From Eubacteriales bacterium (lineage in GTDB: Bacteria; Bacillota; Clostridia; Oscillospirales; CAG-272), in NCBI GenBank assembly GCA_045659905.1, contig JAZRCT010000040.1, positions 2,003 to 66,002 of the forward strand: a stretch of 64,000 bases of DNA, given 5' to 3'. Below are positions 1 to 50,842 of the stretch, piece after piece. A model generated the notes under the pieces. It worked only from the letters and a program-made list of their open reading frames with translations. It made no database searches and was not told where the DNA came from. Every line of letters begins with the position of its first letter. The first letter of the stretch is position 1. A program made the position numbers and the translations under genes.

Positions 1-3000
1 TTTTCCGTAAGCGCAGTCTGGTTAAGCGCTATCGCCCACTTCTGCTTTGAATTGAGCGTACCGTTCTTTATTACGAGGGTGGTATCGTAAATGTCGGTTG
101 CGTTTGCTACTACGTCGAAGATATAAGCGCTGTTACGTGAAAGCGTATTGCCGCCAAGGTCGATGGTGAATACGCCGTTTATACCAAAGGGCTTAAGGGC
201 AACGGGATTATCTATGCTCTTACGGAGATAAGCCACCGAGCCGCCGTAGCCGTCCTCATATCCCGTAAGGTTTGCTCTTGCGTCCTTAAATTCGCCGTTC
301 TTGAAAAATGCGAAGGGATAAAGGTCCTTGTCGCTGTAATAAGCGGGAATAAAGCCGTAATCGTCTGCCTTTTCGGATGCGGTGAATAAGTATTTATCAA
401 AACCGCCGTCGGCAGTCACCGTCTTAAGCAGCGATACTCTGCCGTTTTTATCCTCGGCGTTGTTAAAGTTCGTCTTAATATCTGCGGGCGCAGTTCCCGT
501 AGCGATGCTAAAGGAGGTATAGCTTCCGTTATACTTACCAAAGGCGATAGAGTCGCCCGAGTCAAGCGTTGCGATAGCCGCCGTACTCATATTCTTTATA
601 GCGCCGCCGTTTACCGTAATTGATACGTTTATAGACTTTCTGCCGTCCTTTACGTCGGAGGCGTTGAATACCGCCTTCTCAGTAGCGTTCGTCATATCAA
701 ATTCGCAGCCGTTATAAGTAAGCTCAAGCTTAGTAGAGCCCGAGGGATTAGATGCCTGAGTCCAAATGGTGAGCGCCAAGGGATTAGATGCGGAGTCGCA
801 GCTGAAATTCACCCTTTCAAAGGTCATTTTAAAGGTCTTTTCGCCCGTAAGGCCGCTTCCGTGGTCTAGAGCTATCGCAGGAGAGCCTACGATAGTACCG
901 CCCGACACGTTTATTACGGTCGCAAAGCCGCCGCTTCCCGTGTGCGAGAAAATATCGAATACCGTTCTTGTGCCCTTAGAGAGCGTATTGCCGCCAAGGT
1001 CTATGTCAACCGTGCCGTTTATATGGCAGAGCTGCTGAGCCACCATATCGTTATCGTCGGTAGAGTAGGAGCTTCTGAGATATACACCAGCCCACTTGTC
1101 AGAAGAGCCGTTGACAGCCTCCTTAGCCGCCGTAATTGCCGCAACCCAGGTGGTATAGCCGACGTTAGTGCCGTCCTTCTTGAACACCACGAATTTATAT
1201 TCAGCGCCTTGGTACTCCTCGCTTACGATACCGAAGCGGGTTACAACGCCTGCTTCCTCAAAGCTATATACAGTATTTCCGTCTGCGGTAACGCCGCCGT
1301 TGGCATTAAGCGCATAAAGCTCGCCCTCGGAGTTCGAGAAGCTGTCGTACTTGGGAGCGACGCCCGCAGGAAGCGTGACGGTGGGATATTTTCCTTCCGC
1401 ACCCGTGCCGATTTTTACGGTGTCCTCGGAGGAGCTTGCAATCAAGGTGTAGCCCTCGTTCATTATAAAGTTGCCGCCATTTACGGTAAGGGTTACCTTG
1501 GTCTTGTCAGAAGCTGTGTCGCCTCTGCCCGAAAGGCCTATTGCTATCGGAGCGTTGGCTCTTGAGCTATCGAATACGCAATCGTCAAATACCGCATTGA
1601 CGGTGACGCCCGTGTTTGCCGTACCCCTGCCGTTTTCCCAGCAATCAAAGACGAGGCCTGTCGTTCTGCGCGCGCTGAGGTCGACGAAGGTTACGCCGTC
1701 AAAATTGAAATTGTAGGTCTTGGCTGCCGCATTTGCCGAGCTCGAGCCGTAGTTAAGACCTATAATCGGCGAAGTATTTATATCCGCAAGCGTACCGTTT
1801 TTGATATTTACGGTAGTGGTATAGGTAGAAGAAGAATTGTGGAATATATCAAAGATATACTTACTGCCTCTCGTCATAGTGTTGCCGCCAAGGTCGAGAG
1901 TGACCGTGCCGCCAAGCGCCGAGGGGACTGAGGTTACGTTGGTGTCAAGCTCAAAGGTCTTGTAATCCTGTCTTAAAAGGATTGTATACGCATCGGTGCT
2001 TTCAACTACGGGAAGCGCCGCCAGTACCTGATTCCAGCGTGCATAGCCCGAAACGAAGCTTCCGTTCTTAAAGAGCGCAAAGGGATAAGCCTTCTTAGAT
2101 GCGTACTGCGCCGAAATAGTGCCGTAATCGGTGGATATTCCGTCACCTATGCAGGAGGAGCTTACGTTAAAGGTCACGTTAGCATCGGGCATAGTAAAGG
2201 TGTAGCTGCCGTCACTAAGAGTAACGGAGGTTGCCGCAGCGCCGCCCACCGACATAGTCACGGAATCAATCTTAAAGCCGTCGTCGGGTGTGAAGCTTAC
2301 GGTAACGCTTGCGTCCTTCTTATGAATTCCGCCGTTTTCAAGCGTGAAATCTCCGCCTACTGCGCTTACCGTATGCTCGCTGTTTGCCGAAAGCGAGAAT
2401 TCAACGAATTTTTCGCCGAAATACTGCTGCGTCCAGGCATTGAAGTGCCAGCCGTCTATCTGAGCGTAGTATCCAAGCCCGCCGGCTTCGGTCAAGTCGG
2501 TATAGCCGTCAACCTTGGGAACTACGTCATCAGTCTTGTCGGTATCCCACTCCTCGTCGTCACCGTTGTGAAGATAGTATACGTTGTCAAGCCTTTGGGA
2601 GACTGCTACCTGAGCTAAGTTTATATTGTGAAGATAGGTCGGTTGAGAGTATATGTATGCGTCCTGCTCGTCCTTCTCCTTATTTCGGTATATATTACCT
2701 GCCGAGAAGGGCATTTTCGACTGGTCGCTGCCGAAAATCTCGGTCATTTCCTCTCTTACGTCCTTAATAAGACATTCAAGAAGCTCGTCGTAGCAATCAG
2801 CAAAGACCTTAGTTCCTGCCTCTGCCTCGCCCTGCATCCACCACATACCCCGAAGCACGGGGGTGTAGCCCATTTCACGCAGGTCCTCAACGCCCTTGCG
2901 TACTACCGATATAAACTGGCGGTACATATTTCCGACGATATATTCGCCCTTGTAGCTGTTGTCACCCGTCACGTAGGAATTGCGAACGTCCTCGGTAACG

Positions 3001-3539
3001 TCGGGATAGTCGTCGTTCGGGTCGTTGTTGGCAAGTCCCGTATTAGTAATCGGGTCGTAGTAGCTGGGAGGAGTCCAAGTACCCACCGATTTAGCGATAT
3101 TGCTGTTATTTTTAGGGTAAATCTCGGTAGCGCCTACCGCCACCTTGATTACCGCATTCATTTTGTCGGTATTACCAAGCGCCTTGGCTACGCCAAGCTC
3201 AGCGCCCGAGCGTGTCAAGGTCTGTCCGAAGCCAAAGGTAACGGGGGTAAAGCCCGAGACGTCATACTGAAATTGCTCGTGCTCACCAAAGAAAAGCACG
3301 TTATCAAAGCCCGTGTAATATCTGTCGTCGTTATCCTTGTCGGGAAATTTGTGCGTGGTTTCGTCCTGAGTGCCGTAGCCTACGGCGTTTGACTGTCCGC
3401 CGATAAGCCAGACGTCGATAGTACCCAAGCTTCCCGCCGCTTGCTGCGCATTGCCGATAAGCGCAAAGCTAAAGGCGAATGCAGACAAAAGCAACGAAAC
3501 GAGAAGTAACGCACCCGTAATTTTTCTTTTAACGTTCAT
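1..3539 (-). CDS. large secreted protein: signal peptide + SASA/SGNH-type carbohydrate (sialate O-acetyl-like) esterase domain, then at least 3 copies of a ~300-aa repeat module; 3' end lies outside the window
   Basis: ATG at 3539-3537 preceded by GGAG. Own translation gives MNVKRKITGALLLVSLLLSAFAFSFALIGNAQQAAGSLGTIDVWLIGGQSNAVGYG (signal peptide + GQSN esterase motif). The frame was re-checked by hand at 360-120 (DDYGFIPAYYSDKDLYPFAFFKNGEF...GYGGSVAYLRKSIDNPVALKPFGINGVFTIDLGGNTLSRNSAYI) and is still open and protein-like. It is absent from the ORF track only because no stop lies inside the window. The plus-strand ORFs 766-3392 are antisense shadows. Confidence 0.85.
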   Translation of the reverse strand, partial: MNVKRKITGALLLVSLLLSAFAFSFALIGNAQQAAGSLGTIDVWLIGGQSNAVGYGTQDETTHKFPDKDNDDRYYTGFDNVLFFGEHEQFQYDVSGFTPVTFGFGQTLTRSGAELGVAKALGNTDKMNAVIKVAVGATEIYPKNNSNIAKSVGTWTPPSYYDPITNTGLANNDPNDDYPDVTEDVRNSYVTGDNSYKGEYIVGNMYRQFISVVRKGVEDLREMGYTPVLRGMWWMQGEAEAGTKVFADCYDELLECLIKDVREEMTEIFGSDQSKMPFSAGNIYRNKEKDEQDAYIYSQPTYLHNINLAQVAVSQRLDNVYYLHNGDDEEWDTDKTDDVVPKVDGYTDLTEAGGLGYYAQIDGWHFNAWTQQYFGEKFVEFSLSANSEHTVSAVGGDFTLENGGIHKKDASVTVSFTPDDGFKIDSVTMSVGGAAATSVTLSDGSYTFTMPDANVTFNVSSSCIGDGISTDYGTISAQYASKKAYPFALFKNGSFVSGYARWNQVLAALPVVESTDAYTILLRQDYKTFELDTNVTSVPSALGGTVTLDLGGNTMTRGSKYIFDIFHNSSSTYTTTVNIKNGTLADINTSPIIGLNYGSSSANAAAKTYNFNFDGVTFVDLSARRTTGLVFDCWENGRGTANTGVTVNAVFDDCVFDSSRANAPIAIGLSGRGDTASDKTKVTLTVNGGNFIMNEGYTLIASSSEDTVKIGTGAEGKYPTVTLPAGVAPKYDSFSNSEGELYALNANGGVTADGNTVYSFEEAGVVTRFGIVSEEYQGAEYKFVVFKKDGTNVGYTTWVAAITAAKEAVNGSSDKWAGVYLRSSYSTDDNDMVAQQLCHINGTVDIDLGGNTLSKGTRTVFDIFSHTGSGGFATVINVSGGTIVGSPAIALDHGSGLTGEKTFKMTFERVNFSCDSASNPLALTIWTQASNPSGSTKLELTYNGCEFDMTNATEKAVFNASDVKDGRKSINVSITVNGGAIKNMSTAAIATLDSGDSIAFGKYNGSYTSFSIATGTAPADIKTNFNNAEDKNGRVSLLKTVTADGGFDKYLFTASEKADDYGFIPAYYSDKDLYPFAFFKNGEFKDARANLTGYEDGYGGSVAYLRKSIDNPVALKPFGINGVFTIDLGGNTLSRNSAYIFDVVANATDIYDTTLVIKNGTLNSKQKWAIALNQTALTE

Positions 3540-3562
3540 AAGTATACACTCCTTATTAACTA

Positions 3563-3581
3563 TTCACTCTTATCTCCAGAG
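3563..3581. repeat. 19-nt direct repeat TTCACTCTTATCTCCAGAG, copy 1 (copy 2 at 3725-3743); each copy abuts a short hairpin
   Basis: Exact 19/19 match read in the sequence. Copy 1 sits ~25 nt upstream (minus-strand sense) of the start codon of the 1-3539 gene. Confidence 0.8.
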
Positions 3582-3586
3582 ATATG

Positions 3587-3645
3587 CACGGCAGAGCCGT
3601 GATGCCATTCACTCTTACGAGTGATTATATACGCCTATGGCGTAT
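3587..3645. repeat. three consecutive short hairpins (CACGGC-aga-GCCGTG / TCACTC-ttac-GAGTGA / ATACGCC-tat-GGCGTAT) separated by short linkers
   Basis: Perfect 6-7 bp inverted repeats read directly. Same architecture as the hairpin-linker arrays elsewhere in the window. Confidence 0.7.
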
Positions 3646-3724
3646 GATGAATGGGGGACGAATGGCTAGCGAAAAAGCCGAGTCCATTTTTATTATACAA
3701 CTTTCACCTCTTCACTTTTCACTC

Positions 3725-3743
3725 TTCACTCTTATCTCCAGAG
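3725..3743. repeat. 19-nt direct repeat TTCACTCTTATCTCCAGAG, copy 2
   Basis: Exact match to 3563-3581. It overlaps the left arm of the 12-bp-stem hairpin at 3738-3764. Confidence 0.8.
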
Positions 3744-3764
3744 CATCTGTGTCAGATGCTCTGG
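3738..3764. other. perfect 12-bp-stem hairpin CCAGAGCATCTG-tgt-CAGATGCTCTGG overlapping the stop codon of the 42-aa ORF
   Basis: Inverted repeat read directly. No T-run follows on either strand, so it is not a canonical terminator. Confidence 0.75.
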
Positions 3765-3880
3765 TTCAAGTCCCACACGCCATCGGTATTTTCTACGGCG
3801 GTGGTTTCAGTTCCCGAGGTGGTAAGTACGTCCTGATTGATTTCCAAAGCTTCAAGAATAGGCTGCTCGTATTTTTTCAT
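3752..3880 (-). CDS. candidate small protein (42 aa, acidic): MKKYEQPILEALEINQDVLTTSGTETTAVENTDGVWDLNQSI
   Basis: ATG at 3880 with AGAAAGGAA 9 nt upstream; TGA at 3754-3752. It lies between the two giant genes on the same strand. It is below the ORF-track length cut-off and I recognise no homolog. Confidence 0.35.
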   Translation of the reverse strand: MKKYEQPILEALEINQDVLTTSGTETTAVENTDGVWDLNQSI

Positions 3881-4000
3881 ATCACTAGTTCCTTTCTTTT
3901 TTATATTTTTGCTCTCTGCCATGGGATTGCCGTTATGCTCACGGCAGAGAGTGTTTATCTGATTTGCAATTCTTTTATTTCACCTGATGAGCCGCATCGC

Positions 4001-7000
4001 TTAGCCAATTCGTGCGTTTCTGTACGCTTCGGCGCTCTGTGCGTAGCACATAAATCTCTCTACGAGAGTCTTAAGCTCCGCCTTCTTTTCGCCGCTGTAC
4101 TCGTTTACTACGAAATCGTAGTAAGCCGCAAGATTGTAAGCGCCGCCCGCAGCCGTGCCGTCGACCGTGAACTCTATATCGCCTGCAAGCACGTATGCAA
4201 AGCTCGTGACCTCAAGGTAATCGCCGTCAGTGTCCGTGCCTACGGTAAATTCAAGCGTCCTTGAGCCCTGCTTAAACTCGAATTCAGAGCTATCGGTCAC
4301 CGTGCCGTCAAGGTAGAAGCGCACCGACGGAACAGCCCCCAGCACGAAGGTTGCCTCGCCTATACCGCTTCCCGCCTCGGGCGTTACCGCAGTACCGAGG
4401 GTGGGCGTGTTATCGGCGTCGTAATCCGTGCCGAGAATTTCGTCTATTACCGCAAGGTCGGAATCGGTCTTGCCAAAGTATGCGTAAGCGCTCCTTACGT
4501 AAGAGAGGATATCCAGAAGAAGCTTCTCCTCTGCCGCAGCAGCGTTATTCGCCGTAGCGTTCTCTACGTATTTGACAAGACTCATAGTGTATCTGCCGCC
4601 TAGCGTTCCGCCGTCGGTGTCAACCTCTGCCAAAAGCACCATATCCGCAAGCGCTGCATCCGCAGAAAGCGATACCGTCAGCGTATAGTAAGCTGTGCCT
4701 CCAATGTCTGTTATAGGAAGCGAGGTAAGCGCTGCGCCCTCATAAACGGTGCCGTTAAGCGTAAGCTTTGTCAGCGCCGCTATATTTGAAACGTAGATAT
4801 TGTATCTTAAATCCGAATAGAGCGAGATGCTCGATTTTACGGTAAAGTCGCTGAGAGCCTTTACTCTCAGGCGGTAGGTTGCGGTAAGAGTGTTCTCGGA
4901 TTCCTTTATAAATTCCGCAGCTCCAAGCGCCGTCAAGTAATCGCCCGAGGGTGCTTCTGCGCTCTTGTCAAGAGTAATAGCAAGAAGCTTTCCGTCGGTG
5001 CTCCTGCCAAGCATTACGCCTCCAACAGAGTCAGCCTCAGTCGAGCTGAGAGTGAATTTATCAAGGCTTGCCGCCTTTATCTCACATCCGAGCACACTGG
5101 TATCGGAATGAATCTTGCCGTTGCCGCTGTCAAAGAGCTTCACACTCTTGTCTGCCGAGGTAACGTCAAACCTACAATTCTCGTAGGATACGTGGGTGTT
5201 AGCAGTAGCGTTCGGCGTGTTGGAATCCTGATAATAGTATACGAGCGAGGTCGCCGTACCCTTAACGCTGAAGCCAACGTCGACAAACTTAAGGCTTACC
5301 TCCTTATCCTCCATATAATAATCGTCTCTGTCGGGATAGGTCGTGCCGTCCTTGTTGTTGCCTGTCCAAGCCGCAAAGCTTACTATTCCTCTGTTGGTCA
5401 GAACCATACCGCCGTTCTTCATTACAATCTCGGTGGGGAAGATATTTGCATCGCCCGAGCCGCCCCAAGGCTTAATTGAGAACGGTATCGCCACTCTGTC
5501 ACTTGGTGCGGTAAGGGTAAATCCGCCAAAGTCGACGGTAAGCGTGCCCTGAATCTGAGCTACGTTATTGTATTGCTCGTTCGACGCCATAGCGTAATCT
5601 CTGCGCATAAGGATAAACGCCGCACGGGGATTGTCACCGTAGCTGCCGTCTGCGTAAACGTTGCCCTTCATATACTCCTTAGCTACATTAAGCGCACCGT
5701 CGTTTTCATACTTATCCGTAATATCAAGGAAGGTGTCGTCGCCTGCAATAAAGCCGCCTTGCTCGTTGAATACTGCGAAGGGATATGCGTTAGCATCCGC
5801 ATAGGTGTAAGGAATTTCTCCGTACTCGGTAGCTACCGCCTCGCCAAGACGGTATACGGTATTCGTGCCGCTGACGCTCTCCTTACCGAGAGTAAGCGCC
5901 TTGCCTGCCGCATTGTATACGACGAAGCTCGTGTGAGTGGGAGCTGTCACCGTTGCAGGAAGAATTATTGCGGTGTATTCTCCGCCGCCGCAGCGCTCGT
6001 AGGCAAGCGATTCGTCGCTCCTCATATTAGCAAGCTTGTAATTTGTAAGGTCGGGATACATAACGCTGCCGCCCGTGAACACTACCGTCGAGGTCATATT
6101 ATTTTTGTTGTCGTTGCAGTCAAGAAGTCTTGCGCCGCTCGGAGCGCCGGTAAAGTCTACCGTACAGTTATCGAAATAATAGCCAAGCACAAGCGAGCCG
6201 CCGGTCTTACCGTCAAACTCTGATACCATATACTTCGAGTTGCCTATAAACCTGAAGGTAACGTCGGTAAAGCAGAAATCGAGCGCCTTTGACTTAGTGC
6301 TGTCACCGTTTGAATGCTGAAGTCCAAAGAGAGGAAGCGTTGCCTTGGGCGAGCCGTCGTCGTTAAAGCCGATGCGGTTGTTTACGATAGTACCGTTTTT
6401 GAATTCTATCGTAGACTTGCCGAGATAGGAGGTATTGTTAAAGTTAACTCCGCAGTCTCCGATATACGTGGTGCTTTCCAGCGTATAGCCGTTAAGGTCT
6501 ACTACGATTTTACCTCTTGCCGCATTGAAATTAGAGCCTGCCGTCGAGGTATATTCGTATCTTAAAACTATCGTCGCAACCGTATTTTCCTTGCCCTCGT
6601 CCTTTAAGAGGTCTCTTGCCGCACCTAGAGCTGCGCTCCAGGAGGTATTTGCCGACTTAAAGGCAGTGTCCTCAAACACGAAGAAGGGATAGTCTACTGC
6701 CGAAAGGTTCTTTCCTTCGTTTATATAGGCGGTCTTATCGCCAAAGGTCATAGGAAGAAGCTCGTAGGTAGACTTAGTGCCGTCGTCCTTGACCTCTATA
6801 AAGTATCTCTTTCCCTCGGTAGTGTTAAACGAAGTCGTGCCGTGCAAATAATCCTTCGCATTGCTTACTGCTGTCATATAGGTATATTTGCCGTTATATT
6901 TACCAAAGGTAACGCTGTCGTTTTCCGTATTAAGCGAAGAAAGGATAACGTTTGAAATATTATCGCAAATTATTTCGCCGCCGTTTATCACGAGGTGGTT

Positions 7001-9106
7001 GTTTATAAGGTCGGTATATCCGTAATTCTCTGTGAAATCAAAGAGCACGGGCTTATCGCCGCTTGGGAGGTTAGTCTTAAGGTCAAGCACGCAATCGTTC
7101 AGAGTTATGTTGGTATTTGATTTCATGGTGCAGGTGTTAGGTACTGCAACGTTATTCTCCTTCGTGGGGTTGGTCCAGGCACCGAAAAATGCCTCACCGG
7201 ACCTCACCGCATCGGGAGCAAATCCGAGCGTAACCTTTTCAAGAGTAACGTTCCACTGTTTCACCTTATCGCTCGTAGCCGTGCCTATCTGATTTGCGAA
7301 AATCGGACTCTTCAAGGTACGAAGCGAGCCATTCTTAATCACTATATTGGCGGGGGAGGTGTTCGTATTTCCGTAATAGAAGTCGAAAATAACCTTATCT
7401 CTCGTGAAGGTAAAGCCGCCAAGGTCTACGGTAAGCGTTCCGTTCGCCTTGTTAAATCCGCCGCTGTTTGCCGCATCGCCCGTGTTGGTGTAATCCTTGC
7501 GAAGCAGAATTTGAGCGTCGGCGTCGGGTTTTCCGTGAAGAAGACTTCCAATAGAAGCCGTAACGCTATTCCAGGTTGCGTGAGCGGAAATAAACTCGCC
7601 GCCCGAGAAGAGCAAGAAGGGATATGCGTCGGCGTCTGCCTTTGCGGTAGGAATTACGCCGTAATCGGTGACGTTGTTGTTCACCGTAAGGGTATAGATA
7701 TCGTAGTCACCCTCGGTCGTGCCGTCGGTGGTAAAGTTGGTATATTCACCCTCTGCGGTCTTGAAGTTGTCTGAAATCGAAGCGCCGCCCGCCTTAACCT
7801 TAAGCGACGGAAGCTCTCCGTCAGAGCCTATTCCTGCGGTGAGGGTGTCCTCGGCATCGGTTTTCGCAAAGGTGTACGCTGCGCCGTTGGTCACGAAGTC
7901 TCCTCCGAGAATATTGATATTAGCATCTGCGTAGGCGTTGCCTATCGTAATAAGCGTACCGCCGCTTGCAGGAGCGTTAGCTTCAAGGTCGAAGCTGCAA
8001 TCCTTATAGGTAAGATTGGTGACGGTATTTACTTTATGGTCGTTATGCCAGAAGTTCCAGAAAACACCCGATACCGAGCTTACCGTAAAGCCTGCGTCAA
8101 ATCCAAAGGTAACCTTATCAAAGGTAATATCGAAGGTCTTAATCTCGGTAGTATCGGCAAGGTAATGAGTAACGCCTATCGGGCTGTTTGACTTTGCGTT
8201 AATTCTACCGTTGGTAAATATTACCGAGGTTTCATAATCGTAAACGGTGTTTGAATTTATCACCGCATTTATAATGGTCTTGGTTCTTGCAAGCGTCTTT
8301 CCGCCAAGGTCTATAAGAACCGTGCCGTTTGTCGAGCCAAAGCTTATCTCATCGGTGTTGTCAAAGTCTGCTCGCATAAGTATTTCTACTCTGCTATCGG
8401 CATATTCCGAACCGGCAAGGCGCTTGTTTGCTATAGATACCGCAAGCTTAAGCGTTGCTGCGCCCTCGATAAGAGCGCCATCGCTGAATACGAGGAAGGG
8501 ATAATCCGTAGCGCTCATAAACTCCTCGCTGATTACGCCGTAGCGTGTCGAATTTTCCTCGCACGCAAGCGTGTAGGTCGCCATATAGGAGGCGTCGGTG
8601 CTTGCCTTGTGATAGCCCGCATAGCCGTCAGCCATAAGGTATGAGCCTGCGACGGACTTCGTCACCGCTTCGGGCATTATAAGCTTGGTATAATTCTCGC
8701 TTGAATCCTTAAAGAATTCTACTATGGACGCATTGGAGGAAACGCTTATCCATCTCTGCGAGGAAAGTCTTATCTCGCCGCCCGTCACGCCGTAGCTGAG
8801 CTTAAGCGCCGCCGAGGTGGGTGCGGGGAATATTACCGTCGCATCCTTCGAGTGAAGTCTCTCGTCAAGGTCGAACACGCAATCGGTAAAGTCTATATAG
8901 GCATTTACCGAAGCGCCCGACTTGATTGCCGATGAGCAGATAAGCTCGGTTGTGAAGGAATTTTCACCAAAGCTTATATTTACGCCGTCAAAATTGATAT
9001 CGAAGCTCTTATTTTCCGCCGTAGCGTCACTAAAGGATATAAGAGCCGTTCTTCCGAGCTTGATTTTACCGCCCGAAATATTTATCTCGCTCGCCGCAGT
9101 GCTTGC
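4001..9106 (-). pseudogene. C-terminal ~1701 codons of a giant secreted repeat protein, with 4 full copies of the ~300-aa module plus a unique C-terminal region. It is in frame with, and continuous with, ORF 9107-12319 across one TAG.
   Basis: The ORF track lists 4001-8878 (GTG-initiated). I translated 9106-8879 by hand (ASTAASEINISGGKIKLGRTALISFSDATAENKSFDINFDGVNISFGENSFTTELICSSAIKSGASVNAYIDFTDCVF) and found no stop and no ATG. The repeat module runs straight through the TAG. Confidence 0.8.
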
Positions 9107-12100
9107 CTAATTATCGTAGATAAGAGCGCCCGTCTTGTTTGCAGAGGTGAGAGTGTAGCCGTTAAGGTCAAGATTTACCTTAGCAAAGCCGCCAATGCCG
9201 CTGTATACGCCCGAGTCGTCAAGCGTGTAATCGGATTGAAGCTTTAAGGTGTATCCCGATACGAATGCCGCAAAGGCGTCCTTGAGGGTTGCGTATTCGC
9301 CAACCTTGGCATCGCCGTTATATACCGCTATCGGACTATCCGATACAGGTGCGCTATAAGCGAAGCCGCTCCGGTCGTCGGTCTCGGCAAGTCCTGCCTC
9401 AGATACGGTAATATCGGTAATCTGCTCGGTGACGAGAAGACCTCTTATATAAGCCTTCTTCGCTTCATTTCCGGAGGGGGAGAGCGAAAGCGTCAGCGAC
9501 TGAGTGTTCGTATCCGAGGGGAAGCCGTAATCAGGCTCGTAGACCTCGTAGGTAAATTCAACGTGTACCCATTCGTTTGCCTTGGTGGCTACGTTGAAAT
9601 ATACGTTATCGTAGTCGATAGTGCCGTACGCCTCTCTCTTGGTCATAGAGTTGAGCTTCACAACGAGAGTGCGGCTCACGGTATCGTATAAATCGAAGCC
9701 TACGGTAAAGCGTCTGCCGTAGTTTTCAGCCGTGATAGGCACTCCGCCCATAATCTGCTTATAGGTGAGAATCTGCGTCGGATTGCTGTAATATACCGAA
9801 AGAGGATTCGAGGACGAAGGCTTCTTCGAGGTTGCGGTAACTATGACCGATACCGCCGCCATATTATCTACGGTGTCCTCGGCAAAGGTTGCGTTTTTCT
9901 TCGTGGCGTTCGAATCGGTAAGAATTAGCTTGCCGTCGGCGCTCGAAAGCACCTCCTTTGCATCAACCTTTTCGTTCTTTGCCTTAAGAAGAAGCGTTAC
10001 CTCGCTTCCCTTATTTTCAACGATAAAGTCCGAAATATCTATTTCGTAAGTGCCTGCTCCACGGAGATTTACCGAGCCTAAAAGCTCTCCTTCGGTAGCG
10101 GTTGCGCTTTCTACTGCGTAAAGCTCGGCTATATTAGCCGCATCGTTTGCCACAGCAAAGCGGAATGCGTAGCCGTTGCCTGAGGTGAATTCAGCGGGTG
10201 CGGTAAAGGTATAATAGCCGCCGTTCGCCGTAAGCTCGCTTACCTCATCCGCCTTGGTGATAAAGCTCGTAGAGTATGCGCTGCCCATAGCGACGCCGTT
10301 CTTGCCGCAGAAGTCAGCGGGAATATTGACGGTGTAGGCAGAGCCGCCCGAAAGAAGCTCGGTCGGGGTAAATTCCCATACCACGCCGCCAAACGAGGAC
10401 TCCCAGATACCCTCAAGGGCGCTGCCGCCGAGAGATACCGTAATTTTTTCGACCTCGGCGAGCGTAGCCACGCCCGTAAAGCCTATCTTGATTTTAGCAT
10501 TAAGGTCGGTATTTCCCGCCTTATCCATAGGCGAGATATAGGCGATATCGATAGCTTCGTTCTTAAGGAAATATCCGACGTACTTAAAGAAGGCGTCGTA
10601 GGAATTTACGTTGTAATTCATATCGTTGCCCTCGGTAAGGGTATGACCTATCGGAAGCTCGAACTGTAAAAGAGGAATATCAAGCTCACGGCATATATTG
10701 TAAACGTTTACCGAATAGCTGTACGCAGCGTTGTAATCGTCCTGCATATTGCCCGTAACGAATACGGGACAGTGACCTGCGCTTATATCCTCCTCCTGCG
10801 AGCCGTTTGATGCGTATGTAAGCTGAACGCCGGAGATTATTTCCTTGCCTTGGTTGTCGCCATTTTCGTAGGTTAGCCAGGGCTGACGCTCTGCCGCACG
10901 GATTGTAAAGCCGGTTATGTCGTCCTTTTCGTCGGTAAGATGCCCCTCCTGATAGCGGGTTTCACCGTGGTGTCCGTCAAAATATCTGTCGGGCACGAGT
11001 GACGATAGCGCCTCGTTTATTGCCGCCTCCTTAGCGTCGGCGCTGGCGTAGCTGCCCTTAGCAAGCTCACTCTGAAGCACCTCCTCGCCGAGGTATGAGA
11101 ACCAGCCGCCCTTGGAGTTGCCGTATACGCCAAAGGCGTCGAGGTCGAATTTGATGTCTGCCTCGTTTTCGGAAATATGACGCAGATAACGCATCGCCGC
11201 AGTATTTACGAGCTTATCGTTATACATCATTACCGCATAGTTCATATGGTCGCCCGTGTTGCCCGAGCTTCCGTCGTAATAGCCAAAGCTTGCGTTTCTC
11301 GCCATAGGCATCCAGAGGTAGTCGAATACCACGTTAGCGTAGCCCTCGTAGAGGAAATTGTTAGAATGAGTGCGCAGGTACTGCGAGTCTGTGCCAACGC
11401 TCGTTCTCGGGTTGCCCGACGAGTTGGCAAGCGACATTACGGGTACTTCATTCGCAGGATTGGTGGGATATACGATATTGATATAAAGGTTCATATCAAT
11501 AAAGCTTCCGTCGGGGTCTACGCAGTCGTAAATATCCTCTGCCACGGTGTACTTAAGCTTGGTGTAAAGACCGTTTGCGTCCACGTGCGAATCCTTACAC
11601 TCTATATTGTTATACCAGATAACGTCAGAGGTAGTCGTCTTTCTCGTAGCAACGGTATCGCCCGTAGCCCACTTAACGCCTCGGTTAGGCTTCGAGGTCT
11701 TAAGGTCGGTATTCCAGTTGTCTACTATCTTCTCAAGCGTACCCTCGGTAGAGTGCTTGTCAATCTCCCAGAATACGGCGTTTAAAATGACGTTGCAGCC
11801 TGCGGGGCATACGAAATGCTCCCAGACCGCCTTGCCGCCCGAAAATCCGTCAAAGGTCAATATCTTTCCAAGCGAAAGCTGCTGTCTGAACGTCTGCGTG
11901 GAGCTTGCAAGCATTTCGGTGCTTTTCGTTGTGTGAAGATAGTCCATTACGATAACGACGTAACCGCGCTCAAGCATCGAGGTGATTATATTCACGTTGG
12001 AATCCGTGCCCGTCTTCACCGCCGTCGGATGGTTGACAGTGTAAAGAATTACGGGCGTGCCCTCATAGCCCGGCACGGTCGTTCCCTTCGCCGTATCGTA

Positions 12101-12319
12101 ATACACGGTATACTCAAATTTACCGACGTATTTATCGGTATGCTCTGCGGTGCTCTGCACGAGATAGCTCTCGTCAAACGCCGCCTTGATTTCTGTCATT
12201 TCGTCGGTGACGCTGTTCGCAAAAACGTTCACCGCTACAAGTCCCGTAACGAAGATAGCTAAAAGCAGCACGGTCGCCAAAATTCTTCTTACGAGCGAAA
12301 AATTCCTTCTTCCTTCCAT
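9107..12319 (-). CDS. N-terminal part of the giant secreted protein: signal/anchor peptide, alpha/beta-hydrolase (GxSxG: YGNSKGGW) esterase-like domain, Ig-like/beta-rich region, and the first repeat module truncated by TAG at 9107-9109
   Basis: AGGAGGA lies 6 nt before the ATG at 12319 (MEGRRNFSLVRRILATVLLLAIFVTGLVAVNVFA); the ORF-track start at 12352 has no spacing from the RBS. The nucleophile-elbow motif GNSKG is present. The ORF ends ...DLNGYTLTSANKTGALIYDN-TAG. Confidence 0.85.
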   Translation of the reverse strand: MEGRRNFSLVRRILATVLLLAIFVTGLVAVNVFANSVTDEMTEIKAAFDESYLVQSTAEHTDKYVGKFEYTVYYDTAKGTTVPGYEGTPVILYTVNHPTAVKTGTDSNVNIITSMLERGYVVIVMDYLHTTKSTEMLASSTQTFRQQLSLGKILTFDGFSGGKAVWEHFVCPAGCNVILNAVFWEIDKHSTEGTLEKIVDNWNTDLKTSKPNRGVKWATGDTVATRKTTTSDVIWYNNIECKDSHVDANGLYTKLKYTVAEDIYDCVDPDGSFIDMNLYINIVYPTNPANEVPVMSLANSSGNPRTSVGTDSQYLRTHSNNFLYEGYANVVFDYLWMPMARNASFGYYDGSSGNTGDHMNYAVMMYNDKLVNTAAMRYLRHISENEADIKFDLDAFGVYGNSKGGWFSYLGEEVLQSELAKGSYASADAKEAAINEALSSLVPDRYFDGHHGETRYQEGHLTDEKDDITGFTIRAAERQPWLTYENGDNQGKEIISGVQLTYASNGSQEEDISAGHCPVFVTGNMQDDYNAAYSYSVNVYNICRELDIPLLQFELPIGHTLTEGNDMNYNVNSYDAFFKYVGYFLKNEAIDIAYISPMDKAGNTDLNAKIKIGFTGVATLAEVEKITVSLGGSALEGIWESSFGGVVWEFTPTELLSGGSAYTVNIPADFCGKNGVAMGSAYSTSFITKADEVSELTANGGYYTFTAPAEFTSGNGYAFRFAVANDAANIAELYAVESATATEGELLGSVNLRGAGTYEIDISDFIVENKGSEVTLLLKAKNEKVDAKEVLSSADGKLILTDSNATKKNATFAEDTVDNMAAVSVIVTATSKKPSSSNPLSVYYSNPTQILTYKQIMGGVPITAENYGRRFTVGFDLYDTVSRTLVVKLNSMTKREAYGTIDYDNVYFNVATKANEWVHVEFTYEVYEPDYGFPSDTNTQSLTLSLSPSGNEAKKAYIRGLLVTEQITDITVSEAGLAETDDRSGFAYSAPVSDSPIAVYNGDAKVGEYATLKDAFAAFVSGYTLKLQSDYTLDDSGVYSGIGGFAKVNLDLNGYTLTSANKTGALIYDN

Positions 12320-12527
12320 ATACATTCCTCCTACGTATAAAATATTTACCATAAAAGTTATATCATATAAAATTCAAGAGAGGAATAGCTAAACGGCATT
12401 TTTTCAAATATTTTTTGTTTCAAATACACAATTTTCACAAAATTAGATAAGCTTTATTGTTGATATTGCCTATATATCAATATAACCCTTTGAAAAAGCG
12501 GAAACTTCACCAATAAAAAAGGGGGCT

Positions 12528-12611
12528 GTCTCATTAAGAATTCAATAAAATCAATGCAAAATCGGAGAAAATGCGGCAAGAAATAAAGATTTAGCGAATT
12601 CTTAATGAGAC
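12528..12611. repeat. 16-bp perfect inverted repeat GTCTCATTAAGAATTC / GAATTCTTAATGAGAC enclosing 52 nt
   Basis: Read directly (12528-12543 and 12596-12611). It lies in the intergenic region upstream of the giant gene. Confidence 0.75.
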
Positions 12612-12781
12612 TCTGAACCTTGGGGTGAACGAATTTAGGTAGGAAAGCGGCGTTTGCGACCGAAGGCGTACGAGGGTACGGCGAGAGTTCAGCAAACGAC
12701 GGTAGAATAAAAAACAAATAAAAAAGAGGAAAAACAAGAGTTTTTCAACCTTAATTTCCTCAAAATTACGCTTATTATCGG

Positions 12782-12824
12782 GAGGGGTACTGTGTTTCTT
12801 TTACAATACCCCTCGTTTTTTATT
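12782..12824 (+). terminator. orphan intrinsic-terminator-like hairpin (GAGGGGTA-17nt-TACCCCTC + GTTTTTTATT) with no upstream plus-strand gene
   Basis: 8-bp perfect stem followed by a T-run on the plus strand. The nearest genes are both on the minus strand. Confidence 0.5.
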
Positions 12825-12885
12825 CGGTTATGCCTAAATGCGAAAGCCTCTTGGGGCCCGAAAGCATTTTTGGGTGTATTTTTTA

Positions 12886-13000
12886 TTGCCACGTGGCAAT
12901 ATCACTCTTTGCGTGAGCAAAGAATATCACTGTCACCTAAGCGACAATATCACCCTCGCCGTGGTGAGGATATCACTGCCACCAAAGGTGGCTATATCCC
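12886..13000. repeat. hairpin-linker array A: 5 units of [5-7 bp-stem hairpin] + AATATCACT-like linker
   Basis: Units: TTGCCAcgTGGCAA-tATCACT; CTTTGCgtgaGCAAAG-AATATCACT; GTCACctaaGCGAC-AATATCACC; CCTCGCCgtGGTGAGG-ATATCACT; GCCACCaaaGGTGGC-TATATCCC. The array starts at the TAG stop of the 12992-13699 gene. Confidence 0.8.
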
Positions 13001-13699: not shown

Positions 13700-14119
13700 A
13701 AAGCTCCATTCTGATTGCCGATATAATAGGCATCTTATAAGCAGTCGTTGTATTTTTCGGGAATTGAGCCGCCCCGCCTCGGCATAAATGCGGCTAAAAA
13801 GGATAAGTCAATCCTCAAAGCGGTGCTGCCGACACGCACTTTCAAAAAAGCTTCTCAAAGTCGAACGGCGGCAAAAATTCGTAACTTTTCGTAATTTCAC
13901 GAGTGCATATCCTTGTGAATTTTTATTCACCGCCAATAAGGACACTTTTTCGAAAAATCTCCCGTCAAATAAAAGCGTGTTTTGCAAGTTCAAAGCACAA
14001 GAGCGGTAGCCGTGCCCCTTGCCGAATCAAAAGCAAAATCCCAAAGCTCCACCTCGCTTTCGGTAAGGGTCTCCACAAGCGCCGACTTGTACCAACGAAT
14101 GACGAGCAAGCGCCCCAAA

Positions 14120-14376
14120 GAATCCGCCCGATAGTTCGAGATAGCAAATCCGTAACCAAAAAAGGATAAATCCACCCGATTCAACTCCAAATCCGTCGGC
14201 TTTGTCTCAAAATCCGTCCACTTTAATAATAAATCCGTCCCGTTCAGACGAAAATCCACCCAATTTAATGGCAAATACACCCGCTTTAGTGAAAGTACGC
14301 CAGCCTTAGCTAAAAGTACGCACGCTTTAGCAATAAATACGCAGTCTGATAAGAAAAATCCCGCAATAAAGCACGG
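14120..14376. repeat. 21-bp tandem array I (~12 degenerate units, consensus AAATCC(R)(Y)CC-N11)
   Basis: Unit starts at 14146, 14168, 14189, 14210, 14231, 14252, 14273, 14292, 14313, 14335 and 14356 (spacings 22,21,21,21,21,21,19,21,22,21). Confidence 0.8.
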
Positions 14377-15010
14377 ACAACCCCACAATAAACTACAAAT
14401 ATTTAAATCAAAAGCAACAACACGGATATTATACCACCAAACCGAAGCAATGTCAATAAACGCAAAGCAGCGCCGGCGTCAGCGTCTGTGTCAGAAGTTC
14501 CGCACCAAAAATAAGGCGCAATTCAAAGCGGTCATCGCCGCATCTCGCAAGAGGAAAGGTCGGGGCGAGACGAAGCAAAATCAATTCGGAATCCAAAGCA
14601 TAAATCAACAGCCAAATCAAATAAAAAGGCTAAGTAATCCACCACGCAAAATAGAGCATTTTTTCTTTCCGTTTTTCTAAAATCAGCGCCATAAAATTCT
14701 GAATTTTCCGCATATCACAACCTCAATTATACAAAACTTTTTACCGCATATTTTCGTAATATTTTGGAATTTTTCGCAAAAATCAGAAAAATTCTTCAAA
14801 AAACGCTCAAAAAAACAAGGAGCAGCTAAAACCGTGACAATTTTTACCATATTTAACCATATTTTCCCATTTTCGTAGCAAAATGTATATCAGAGCCAAA
14901 AAATCCGCCCACCCCGAAGCTTGGCGCATGCACGGTCAAAATCTAAGCTGCCACAGCGCCTGCGACATTTTTTTGCACTGCTCCGTAGGTCTTTTCAGCG
15001 CTCTGTTGAA

Positions 15011-15181
15011 TTTTTTAAGAGTTTTATTGGCTTTTCGAGTGATAAATCAGCTTTTTAGCATTTTTTCGTTTCCTGAGGCGTTTTTTCGGCTTTTTGTTCG
15101 TTTTTTCATTAAAATAAAGCTTTTTTGCTGTATTTTCTCGCCGTAGTGTGGCGTTTTCGCCCATATTTTTTCTATTTTGTT
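15011..15181. repeat. helically phased T-tracts (T4-T6 every ~10-11 bp); predicted intrinsically curved DNA
   Basis: T-tract starts at 15011, 15022, 15032, 15052, 15061, 15069, 15081, 15091, 15101, 15121, 15133, 15154, 15166 and 15175. Confidence 0.7.
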
Positions 15182-15364
15182 TGAAAAATGCGTTCTCACG
15201 ATACAAATATCGTCTCAAGGCTATCTCCAAGGCAATTTACGGTCGCAAAAAGCCGCTTCAAAGCCGCAAAGAGCCCCTTAATTGTCAAAAACGCCGCTAC
15301 CCGAACTTTTATATCAATCAAGAATCTCCTGCCGATGCCAAGCGGTTTTTTAGCGTATCCTTAT

Positions 15365-15482
15365 AAAAAATTGCAAAATCACCTCAAAAAGCGCCTGTTT
15401 TTTCCTTGTAAAGCAAAAAATCTTTAAAAAATCCCCTAAAATTCGCAAAAAAATCACCCAAAATCCGCAAAATTGCGCCAAA
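15365..15482. repeat. helically phased A-tracts (A3-A7 every ~10-11 bp) ~90 bp upstream of parS-1
   Basis: A-tract starts at 15365, 15375, 15386, 15415, 15426, 15438, 15447, 15460, 15469 and 15480. Confidence 0.7.
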
Positions 15483-15570
15483 TCGGGTGCTAAATCAGCC
15501 GAGCCTTAGGCGCTTAAGCCTTAATTGCATATTCAAGGGAAATTCAAAGGGCAGACTGTTTATCAGGCAA

Positions 15571-15586
15571 TGTTTCACGTGAAACA
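15571..15586. promoter_or_regulatory. parS: parS site 1 (TGTTTCACGTGAAACA), ParB/Spo0J binding site
   Basis: Perfect 16-bp palindrome matching the Firmicute parS consensus tGTTNCACGTGAAACa. It extends to the 20-bp palindrome AATGTTTCACGTGAAACATT. Confidence 0.9.
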
Positions 15587-15793
15587 TTAAAATCCAGGCA
15601 AAAACAGCGAAAAAATATATTTCCCCGCCAAATCCAGGTTGTTTCAAGTGAATTGTCCCCTTATTTACCTTAAAACCGAATTGAGCGAGATTTTGCCGCA
15701 AAAATATGGGGGATTCGTGAGCTTACGGCTAAAAAGGGAACTCAAAAGCTTTTACGGCAAGAATGTAGCAGAATTCAATTGATAAAATCCAAT

Positions 15794-15809
15794 TGTTTCA
15801 CGTGAAACA
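15794..15809. promoter_or_regulatory. parS: parS site 2 (TGTTTCACGTGAAACA)
   Basis: Identical 16-mer 223 bp from site 1, flanked by imperfectly symmetric AAATC(C)AAT arms. A degenerate relative (TGTTTCAAGTGAATTG, 4 mismatches) lies at 15640-15655. Confidence 0.9.
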
Positions 15810-15973
15810 TTGATTTCCCCATCACGATTCGCCCGGAAACAAGAAAAGCCACAAAGCATAAATAAAAAATCGCCAAAAACGCAAAATTTCACAAGCTTCA
15901 CCCAAAATCACCTCAAAGATTACTCCAAAACCGCTTCGAAACACCTATAAAATGCTATAAACCCCAAGCTTAT

Positions 15974-16105
15974 ACTCGGATTGTAACACAGATTGCAACT
16001 CAGATTAAAACTCATATCAAAGCTCGTATTAAAACTCATATTAAAGTCAGTATTAGAACTCCGATTAAAGCTTCAACAAAGACTGCTTCAATTCCGTCCA
16101 ATTCA
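15974..16105. repeat. 12-bp tandem array (~10 degenerate units, consensus ACTCRKATTAAA)
   Basis: actcggattgta/acacagattgca/actcagattaaa/actcatatcaaa/gctcgtattaaa/actcatattaaa/gtcagtattaga/actccgattaaa/... read directly. Confidence 0.8.
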
Positions 16106-16420
16106 GCAAAAACGCCGAAATTTGTACAAAAACCAGTTAAAATACGCCTTGCAGTAAAAATTATCGCATTAAATTGCAAAAAATCGTAGCGTTTAACCGC
16201 AATTTCCGCAAAACGTCTCAGCTCACCGCTCGCAATTTCTCGGAAGTCAAGCCCAAGCCCGCTAAAACTCAGACCAAGGGTTTGCAGCACAGCAAAAGAA
16301 CACAGCCCTGCCGCATACGAACTCAATCACAAACGCCAACTCGAGAAAAATCGCACTCAAAGCTCAAAATCCAACCCATCATAACAATTTCGATATAACC
16401 AAAGTCAGAGTCGTTTTGCT

Positions 16421-16660
16421 AAAAAGCTCAATTCAGAAACGTTTTAGCAAAAAATCTTGATTCAAAGGCGTTTCGGCAAAAAGCTCAATTCAGAGGCACT
16501 TCAACGTGGCAAAAGATTAACGAAAGGGCATTTTGGTTTAAAAATTTCGCTTCAACGGCAATTTCGCTTCGAAAACCTATTCAGAAGAAGGATACTGCTT
16601 AAAAACTTGTCAAAAAATCATTTTTCCAGCAAAAGCCCTCAGTATAACCGGAATTTCACC
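16421..16660. repeat. ~30-bp tandem array (8 degenerate units, each opening with A4-A6)
   Basis: Unit starts at 16421, 16449, 16478, 16511, 16540, 16572, 16601 and 16631, e.g. AAAAAGCTCAATTCAGAAACGTTTTAGC / AAAAAGCTCAATTCAGAGGCACTTCAACGTGGC. Confidence 0.75.
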
Positions 16661-16693
16661 GTCGGCTCGCATTTCTTCGTGCCGTTCTTTGTG

Positions 16694-16860
16694 CTTAGGG
16701 TAGTTTTCTTGCTGCTTAAGCTAGGATTATGCGCTTAAGGTGGGGTCCTCGACGCTTAAGCCGGCTTTCTTGGCGCTTAAGACGGGTTTCTCGGCGCTTA
16801 AGGCAGGGTTATCGGTGATTAAGCAGCTTTCCGAAGGGCGCTTCGCCTTTTAATTGTTTG
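16694..16860. repeat. 21-bp tandem array II (8 units built on GCGCTTAAG)
   Basis: CTTAAG-like cores at 16694, 16715, 16734, 16755, 16776, 16797, 16818 and 16841 (spacings 21,19,21,21,21,21,23). Confidence 0.8.
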
Positions 16861-17065
16861 GCAGCCGTTTCCGCCTCATTCCGTCATAAAATCCCCGACA
16901 GACAACTTATTTTGACGCATTTCGACATAAATTTGGTATTAGTCTGCGCTCTCTTTTAGTTTTCCATTTTTTACCATAAGTTATCAAAAATATAAAAATT
17001 CCAAGCTATGACACGCAAAAGTAGGTCTATTTCTGGATTTTTTGAAAAAAACGTCGATTTACCGA

Positions 17066-17094
17066 TTGACTTTTTCCTTTTATTACTATATAAT
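17066..17094 (+). promoter_or_regulatory. sigma-A-type promoter of parA-parB (TTGACT-17-TATAAT)
   Basis: -35 TTGACT at 17066-17071, a 17-nt spacer, and -10 TATAAT at 17089-17094, ~110 nt upstream of the parA ATG. Confidence 0.7.
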
Positions 17095-17201
17095 CATTAT
17101 ATAACATATATATTAATCATTTAATAATGCATAAGTGTGGTTTTTGCACGATATTTCATTTGCATAGCTATCACTTACAAAAGGAGTATATAACAAAGCT
17201 T

Positions 17202-50702: not shown

Positions 50703-50842
50703 ACGGACAAAGCACGCGGTTAAATCCGTCTTCGACGGGTGAAATCCACCTATGGTGGATGAAATCGCTTTCGCAATGAAATCCTGCTTCGCAGGGTTAA
50801 GATAGACAAGCTTGATTTCATCGTTGCCTGCAACGATTTCAT
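50703..50842. repeat. hairpin-linker array D with ATGAAAT linker (4 forward units, then 2 ATTTCAT inverted)
   Basis: CCGTCttcGACGG-GTGAAAT; CCACCtatGGTGG-ATGAAAT; CGCTTTCGCA-ATGAAAT; CCTGCttcGCAGG-GTTAAGAT; ...ATTTCAT-CGTTGCctGCAACG-ATTTCAT. It lies between the ilvE terminator and the leuA promoter. Confidence 0.75.

Follow-up and report, generated by a model that had tools for sequence, protein, structure and literature searches.

Giant modular proteins of uncultured gut Clostridia combine interchangeable predicted hydrolase heads with a new repeated module

The stretch of DNA analysed here (the window) comprises 64,000 nucleotides (nt) of contig JAZRCT010000040.1 from a Eubacteriales bacterium, and its left end carries two very large genes, gene A (positions 1–3539) and gene B (4001–12319), both on the minus strand. 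An earlier note on this DNA had described them as paralogues in which two different esterase heads are fused to repeated copies of the same uncharacterised module of about 300 residues. The coordinates of both genes were confirmed, a SASA-type GQSN motif was found in A and GNSKGG in B, and every motif string that had been quoted was present. The kinship of the module arrays under the different heads held as well: BLASTP of the A module region against that of B gave E=2e-43, far beyond chance, with 27% identity over 750 amino acids (aa) in several registers. Three features of the locus had gone unmentioned, namely an in-frame TAG in gene B, a conserved and duplicated C-terminal tail of about 275 residues, and a gene for a mini-protein downstream of gene B.

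Gene A starts with an ATG at 3539 preceded by a ribosome-binding site, and its reading frame leaves the window at the left edge, so that 1179 aa are visible, the N-terminal part of a giant protein of the A type whose C-terminus is cut off; the closest full-length relative (P0016) has 1885 aa, with four modules and a tail. Sequence inspection pointed to an N-terminal signal peptide or signal-anchor (3441–3539; MNVKRKITGALLLVSLLLSAFAFSFALIGNA, with the predicted cleavage site before QQ). Behind it lies a SASA (PF03629) SGNH-like acetylesterase head (2400–3422), which scored 47.4 bits against Pfam (gathering cut-off 24.8, E=2.4e-12) and carries GQSN at aa 48–51, with the codon of Ser50 at 3390–3392. 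As in the SASA/sialate O-acetylesterase family, the GQSN nucleophile, the QG block and the D-x-x-H block are kept; of 28 A-type sequences, 93% or more have G48, Q49, S50 and N51, Q236–G237 and D362-x-W-H365. From these motifs head A is assigned as a SASA O-acetylesterase, and the esterase label given to it earlier stands. Characterised members of the family lack the modules and the tail to which head A is fused. Gene A also holds a weak InlB-B-repeat-like stretch.

Gene B, a giant of the B type, counts 2772 codons, is split by one in-frame TAG and runs from an ATG at 12319 (ribosome-binding site GGAGG) to a TAA at 4001–4003. A predicted signal peptide (12218–12319; MEGRRNFSLVRRILATVLLLAIFVTGLVAVNVFA, with predicted cleavage before NS) opens an N-terminal part with a head region of about 1000 aa that contains GNSKGG and a Big_5 immunoglobulin (Ig)-like domain (PF13205, 10256–10561; Pfam E 4.5e-6, 27.8 bits against a cut-off of 23.6); five contiguous modules and a tail of about 280 aa follow. 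The head proper (10520–12109) is probably an alpha/beta-fold serine hydrolase. Its GxSxG motif is GNSKGG (Ser codon 11114–11116), and the Ser of this elbow, the Asp of GNMxD and the His of PIGH were invariant in 20 orthologues and stand in the expected order. All Pfam matches of head B fell below the gathering cut-offs (Peptidase_S15, PF02129, 22.9 bits against 23; BD-FAE, PF20434, 17.8 against 26.8). In the heads of B orthologues BD-FAE recurred in 11 of 11 and Peptidase_S15 in nine of 11, again below threshold (best E about 4e-5), and these recurrent matches span the GxSxG elbow. In contrast to both families, head B has its elbow set apart from the N-terminal strands by a large insertion, and sequence searches, profile included, found no PDB relative for it. 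The esterase label proposed for this head as well rests on the sub-threshold matches and on the conserved Ser, Asp and His, which suggest a probable alpha/beta serine hydrolase that may be an esterase or a peptidase.

The assumption that gene B is one intact gene had to be given up. The TAG at 9107–9109 lies inside the first module, 13 residues past the string DLNGYTL, and divides the gene into an open reading frame (ORF) of 1070 aa and a continuation of 1701 codons in the same frame; the public NCBI gene call at this place (P0001, 1625 aa) also begins past the TAG. The closest orthologues (P0151 and P0002, 2767–2772 aa, about 63–67% identical over the whole length) contain no interruption, and the position aligned to the TAG is Ser, Ala or Thr in 13 orthologues. 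Elsewhere in the window TAG terminates dnaA, spoVAD and a His_Phos gene at normal lengths. Because the orthologues are uninterrupted and this genome uses TAG as an ordinary terminator, we read the TAG as a nonsense mutation or an assembly error and not as recoding. TAG recoding, an alternative genetic code and a phage origin were rejected on the evidence of the 64-kb window, in which the oriC-proximal genes are chromosomal, TAG ends ordinary genes and a search found no tRNA. If the TAG is real, export would be limited to a free, signal-bearing head fragment of 1070 aa. Two further B-type genes (L013 and L015) in one metagenome-assembled genome (MAG; JBGVKA01, ‘fecal_MAG_1’) gave tblastn matches that reach well upstream of the longest ORF, which suggests further stops or frameshifts, so that gene B would not be alone among these very long genes in being disrupted or wrongly assembled. 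The long upstream region of gene B (about 630 nt) holds, within 12520–12990, a 22-nt inverted repeat (12528–12549/12590–12611, 91% complementary) and repeated GTGATAT-containing units (12921–12941 and 12967–12987), and may be a regulatory or REP-like element.

The modules follow one another without linkers, measure 290–335 aa each and share 23–32% pairwise identity. Their DLGG-type motif stands at aa 548, 846 and 1126 of A, the third module being truncated by the window edge, and at aa 1061, 1347, 1642, 1951 and 2273 of B (numbered from an upstream ATG at 12352; subtracting 11 gives the numbering from 12319). Motif and profile together give three modules in A and five in B, in agreement with the earlier count of at least three and five. 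The seed profile was built from six modules, with B1 and A3 left out, and it recovered both: B1 (8558–9421), which contains the TAG and has a divergent N-terminal cap, with an independent E-value (i-E) of 3e-21, and the truncated A3 (6–380) with 3e-19. The remaining modules, A1 (1248–2147, i-E 2e-110), A2 (360–1256), B2 (7676–8563), B3 (6746–7684), B4 (5825–6748) and B5 (4844–5845), all matched the profile. Searches with profiles of the module, the tail and the full-length proteins returned no usable match in Pfam, NCBIfam or PDB sequences; a lone 0.005 match to pilin T-antigen covered 60 residues only and was not reproduced. The beta-helix families of Pfam (Beta_helix, Pectate_lyase_3, NosD and others) gave none at E≤5 in 21 module-plus-tail sequences or in the window proteins. 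The module is therefore uncharacterised, as the earlier note had stated, and no known Pfam family took it in.

To describe the fold of the module, two AlphaFold2 models were used, one of module B3 from six sequences (mean confidence, pLDDT, 80; predicted template-modelling score, pTM, 0.84) and one of module B5 together with the tail from 21 homologues (pLDDT 90). Both were mostly beta. By secondary structure, the N-terminal part (the YPF...ILLR portion) forms a beta-beta-alpha-beta cap, the core is a run of long beta strands whose turns bear the residues conserved best (DLGG, xNG, DCxFD, NGG), and the C-terminal region is beta-rich. All top PDB matches of the module-only model in Foldseek were beta-helix proteins (the adhesin Awp3b, EspC, SufD, tailspikes and pectate lyases), at insignificant values (E≥0.06, TM-score 0.1–0.3). 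In BFVD the best viral matches were to a phage protein described as ‘parallel beta-helix repeat’ (E=1.5e-3) and to the capsule depolymerase of KP34 (E=4e-3, probability 0.9), with TM-scores below 0.2. The secondary structure and these weak matches suggest that the core is a short beta-solenoid of about four to five rungs. The earlier suggestion that the module may be beta-helix-like is thus the best description at hand, and a tentative one. To the right-handed parallel beta-helix proteins (pectate-lyase-like enzymes, tailspike depolymerases, autotransporter passengers and the A-domains of Candida Awp adhesins), the class of every top Foldseek match, the module is similar in its secondary-structure pattern and in its turn motifs (xNGxI, NGG and DLxG). 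It differs from them in that no structure or sequence match was significant (PDB E≥0.02, BFVD best 1.5e-3, TM-score ≤0.3), and in that it is much shorter, is flanked by its own cap and beta region, and is repeated as a unit where those proteins form one long helix.

Conservation was then computed over 511 modules. The G of xNG was present in 100%, the D of DLGG (D83) and the C of DCxFD in 98% each, an L in 96%, the G of NGG in 95% and an N in 91%, followed mainly by Phe, Tyr, Pro and Gly. At the 14 best-conserved positions the residue is kept in ≥83% of the modules; ten of these residues are Gly, Asn, Leu, Phe, Pro or Cys, and the other four are D83, D197 (85%), a Tyr (84%) and R62 (83%). Such a pattern is what one would expect of a scaffold more than of an active site.

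Behind the last module of B lies the conserved C-terminal tail (4004–4843), which consists of two tandem copies of a beta-sandwich-plus-helices unit; the internal duplication was detected by hhalign with a probability of 96% (E=1.6e-9), and Foldseek returned only generic tandem-Ig matches. Tails of 250–300 aa were found in 112 of 139 C-terminal regions. The earlier note had seen no LPXTG, SLH, dockerin or choline-binding anchor in the two proteins, and Pfam, NCBIfam and motif inspection likewise found none of these, nor cell-wall-binding (CWB) repeats, in A, B or the canonical tail; a C-terminal transmembrane segment was absent from them as well. Four of 152 relatives, all without the canonical tail, have Cys-rich repeats instead, behind which come a C-terminal transmembrane segment and a Lys/Arg tail; LPDSG occurs in one of the four. 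Because of these four relatives the C-terminus is taken as the attached end of the chassis, and the canonical tail may be the positional equivalent of their anchor. The Cys-rich repeats, CxxCG...YGE...H, replace the canonical tail in six relatives (P0008, P0034, P0048, P0132, P0007 and P0022, with the transmembrane end in four), and in our reading may be zinc-ribbon-like.

Downstream of gene B, at a distance of 120 nt, a gene with its own ribosome-binding site (3752–3880, minus strand) encodes an acidic mini-protein of 42 aa that has no signal peptide (MKKYEQPILEALEINQDVLTTSGTETTAVENTDGVWDLNQSI). A hairpin with a 9-bp stem, CTCTCTGCC/GGCAGAGAG, was seen by sequence inspection between the stop of gene B and this gene (3912–3951), and locus L002 also has a hairpin between giant stop and mini-gene. 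The syntenic locus of the closest orthologue carries an equivalent mini-ORF, 62% identical. The mini-proteins are 42–44 aa long with the consensus MKKYxNPEIExxEL...DIITTSPGTETxPxEExDGIWD, in which Y4, P7, D17, S22, G23 and W36 are invariant, and further copies were found elsewhere (L001, 18427–18558; L003, 8808–8963 and 18135–18281; L044, 4667–4798 and 10001–10132; and others). Among the first 43 related loci that were fetched, all 24 mini-genes lay immediately downstream of a tail-bearing giant gene, 21 right after a module-bearing ORF and three after tail fragments at contig edges. Their starts are typically 14–35 nt from the giant gene, and about 120 nt in the lineage of the window. On further metagenome contigs the mini-gene follows SASA-type and GH95-type giants after 14 nt, and such pairs occur in tandem arrays. 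The mini family as a whole comprises 1489 clusters, nearly all of 43–44 aa and none with a functional name, and no Pfam or NCBIfam match was obtained at E≤10. Fusions of giant and mini-protein were absent from 178 large proteins, and a motif search behind 15 giant genes without a mini-gene found no divergent mini-ORF. The close downstream placement suggests coupled translation and a role at the C-terminal part of the giant: the mini-gene is possibly translationally coupled to the giant gene, and its product probably has the conserved C-terminal part as its target, where it would serve as a chaperone, a cap or a partner in assembly or retention. A precursor of a ribosomally synthesised and post-translationally modified peptide, a pheromone and a signalling peptide were considered and rejected, as no such family matched and the genes around the mini-genes are giants or housekeeping genes of unrelated function, none of them coding for a radical-SAM, protease or ABC partner.

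Mini-gene and gene A are separated by a spacer of 212 nt, which contains a perfect 19-nt direct repeat, CTCTGGAGATAAGAGTGAA, at 3725–3743 and 3563–3581 (minus strand; 0.01 expected by chance). Part of the first copy also belongs to an 11-bp palindrome (CAGAGCATCTG aca CAGATGCTCTG), which lies across the stop codon of the mini-gene, and repeat and palindrome may be a terminator or a regulatory element. A promoter and terminator scan of the whole region between A and B gave nothing informative.

An exhaustive hidden Markov model search over 1.84 billion representatives, clustered at 50% identity, placed the module in 469 clusters at E≤1e-3 and 413 at E≤1e-10. The architectures of the 150 best-scoring proteins and the two window proteins were surveyed. 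These proteins have mostly 1000–3300 aa with two to six modules each; about 65 carry a B-type head and about 35 a SASA A-type head, both conserved orthologous groups. The same chassis was also found with a metallophosphoesterase (with or without a purple-acid-phosphatase N, LamG or sialidase-type lectin domain), with GH95, GDPD or F5/8-type C (discoidin) domains and with a C-terminal GDSL domain. The earlier idea of a modular family of carbohydrate de-esterifying enzymes is therefore right in its modular part, and ‘de-esterifying’ proved too narrow for such a range. With few exceptions, the sources are gut metagenomes or MAGs of uncultured Clostridia, and the only source annotation, where one was given, is ‘Ig-like domain-containing protein [Clostridia bacterium]’. 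A scan of GTDB species representatives with a single protein as query gave no match; with the orthologue alignment as query, B-type genes were found in 12 MAGs, titled as Oscillospiraceae, uncultured Ruminococcus, Clostridia or Eubacteriales and with isolate names referring to deer, goat, rumen and faecal samples, at up to eight loci per MAG. By their sequences, A and B are thus members of a lineage-specific family of very large modular proteins of uncultured gut Clostridia. Literature searches with the module family or the mini-protein motif strings returned nothing relevant.

We favour the view that these proteins are surface-displayed, stalked exoenzymes with interchangeable hydrolase heads on a new scaffold module, and give it a probability of about one half. 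Each protein would comprise a Sec-type N-terminal signal, an exchangeable hydrolase head, an array of two to six contiguous, anciently diverged copies of the new non-catalytic module of about 300 residues, and the duplicated C-terminal tail. The array would serve as a rigid stalk or scaffold that keeps the head away from the cell, with the C-terminal end as the cell-proximal, retained end. Paralogues would thereby present differing glycan-trimming activities (deacetylation, defucosylation and phosphodiester cleavage) to complex gut glycans, and the 43-residue acidic mini-protein encoded directly downstream would act on the conserved C-terminal part of the giant.

So understood, the family is one of multimodular Gram-positive exoenzymes built from new parts. 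Known multimodular surface enzymes of the gut include the GH95 fucosidase AfcA of Bifidobacterium bifidum and the large sialidases of Clostridium perfringens. Enzymes of this kind likewise combine an N-terminal Sec signal, a head that acts on glycan decorations, long non-catalytic beta-rich arrays and a C-terminal retention element, and occur as several paralogues with different activities per genome. The present family differs in its repeat, which is new, about 300 aa long, and none of FIVAR, Big, CBM32 or cohesin; in its retention, which presumably uses the new duplicated tail instead of LPXTG, SLH or dockerin; and in its linkage to a mini-gene.

Several points weigh against this picture of stalked exoenzymes. 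The structural matches are all insignificant (PDB E≥0.02, TM-score ≤0.3), so that even the fold class of the module is tentative, and the rod geometry of the array is assumed. The conserved polar residues D83 (98%), D197 (85%) and R62 (83%) could form a ligand or Ca2+ site. The modules, at 23–32% identity within a protein, mostly correspond by position from one orthologue to another (in B-type proteins the first and last modules are positionally orthologous), and binding functions that differ from module to module would explain this no less well than an inert spacer would. The hydrophobic segments at the N-terminus are long, with a median of 22 residues, and may be signal-anchors that stay uncleaved, in which case the topology would be reversed. 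As for the mini-protein, 33 tail-bearing giants could be read on their downstream side; about 20 of them are followed by its gene, and about a third are not. A product without a signal peptide also has no simple way of meeting, outside the cell, a partner exported by Sec.

The binding functions just mentioned lead to the main rival, in which the modules are mainly glycan-binding, lectin-like or like a beta-helical carbohydrate-binding module (CBM), with a specificity set by position, and give the head multivalent targeting to a complex polysaccharide or host mucin, the proteins perhaps being released. Beta-helix folds often bind polysaccharides, and depolymerases and pectate lyases are among the weak Foldseek matches. 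Modules that diverged anciently, keep their positions and have not been homogenised would be expected of such proteins, as would the conserved polar positions, to which K153 (62%) can be added, and a released protein agrees with the lack of a classical anchor in A and B. On the other hand, each module has the same conserved polar residues, and a site made of them is not likely to differ in specificity from module to module; the module matches no CBM or lectin family; and the relatives with C-terminal transmembrane or sortase-type anchors imply attachment to the cell. We consider this reading rather unlikely, and it is the one that comes closest to the stalk reading.

If the N-terminal segment were indeed an uncleaved anchor, the tail would be the distal tip, and the proteins could be mainly fibrous adhesins or a coat of the cell envelope with the heads as accessories. 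The length of the hydrophobic regions and the many paralogues per genome agree with this, and so does the best PDB fold match, a fungal adhesin A-domain, with autotransporter passengers also among the matches. Against it stand the strictly conserved catalytic residues of the heads, the swapping among hydrolase heads, which suggests selection on enzymology, and the C-terminal anchors of some relatives; we hold this explanation to be improbable. Very improbable indeed is a catalytic beta-helix with several active sites per protein, a polysaccharide lyase or hydrolase like the tailspike depolymerases, which draws on the BFVD matches and the conserved Asp residues and is opposed by TM-scores below 0.2, by the lack of a sequence match to any lyase or GH family, by the ten Gly, Asn, Leu, Phe, Pro or Cys residues among the 14 most conserved positions and by a solenoid of so few rungs.

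Within the reading as stalked exoenzymes, the giant-plus-mini pair is the element most likely to hide a new mechanism. It might be a self-contained surface-display cassette, in which the mini-protein is made beside the giant's C-terminus by coupled translation and is an obligatory partner of the tail, as a beta-strand cap, a chaperone for export competence or a retention adaptor. We regard this extension as unlikely; if true, it would be a previously undescribed route of export or anchoring for very large enzymes of monoderms that bear no LPXTG, SLH or dockerin. The linkage of the mini-protein in any case raises the question of how monoderms export and retain enzymes of 2000–2800 residues, and no new biological principle would follow unless mini-protein and tail form a new display mechanism. 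Apart from that, at least three domain families (module, tail unit and mini-protein) lie outside Pfam and NCBIfam, and several hundred very large proteins of Oscillospiraceae/Eubacteriales-type MAGs, most of them recovered from the guts of ruminants and other animals, are annotated at most as ‘Ig-like domain-containing protein’. A chassis that carries unrelated heads (acetylesterase, alpha/beta-hydrolase, GH95, phosphoesterases) offers a handle for finding enzymes that trim the decorations of gut glycans.

The window itself is an oriC-proximal chromosomal segment of a spore-forming Firmicute, with dnaA, dnaN, recF, gyrB, gyrA, parA, parB, spoVAD and ilv/leu genes and a GC content of about 50%. 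Its sole Rfam match, a Gut-1 RNA motif (RF01706) at 50717–50787 on the plus strand (50.5 bits against a gathering score of 50), sits in the spacer adjoining a leuA-like gene, on the strand opposite to that gene. Beside parA/parB, a stretch of about 3 kb (13900–17100) has a low GC content (about 0.40) and no ORF longer than 132 aa, and the syntenic stretch in locus L001 (5724–8691) is likewise without a called gene. Repeat arrays with a 21-nt period lie in this stretch at 14168–14287 and 16691–16835, and the palindrome TGTTTCACGTGAAACA, which we take to match the Bacillus-type parS consensus, occurs in it twice, at 15568–15586 and 15794–15812.

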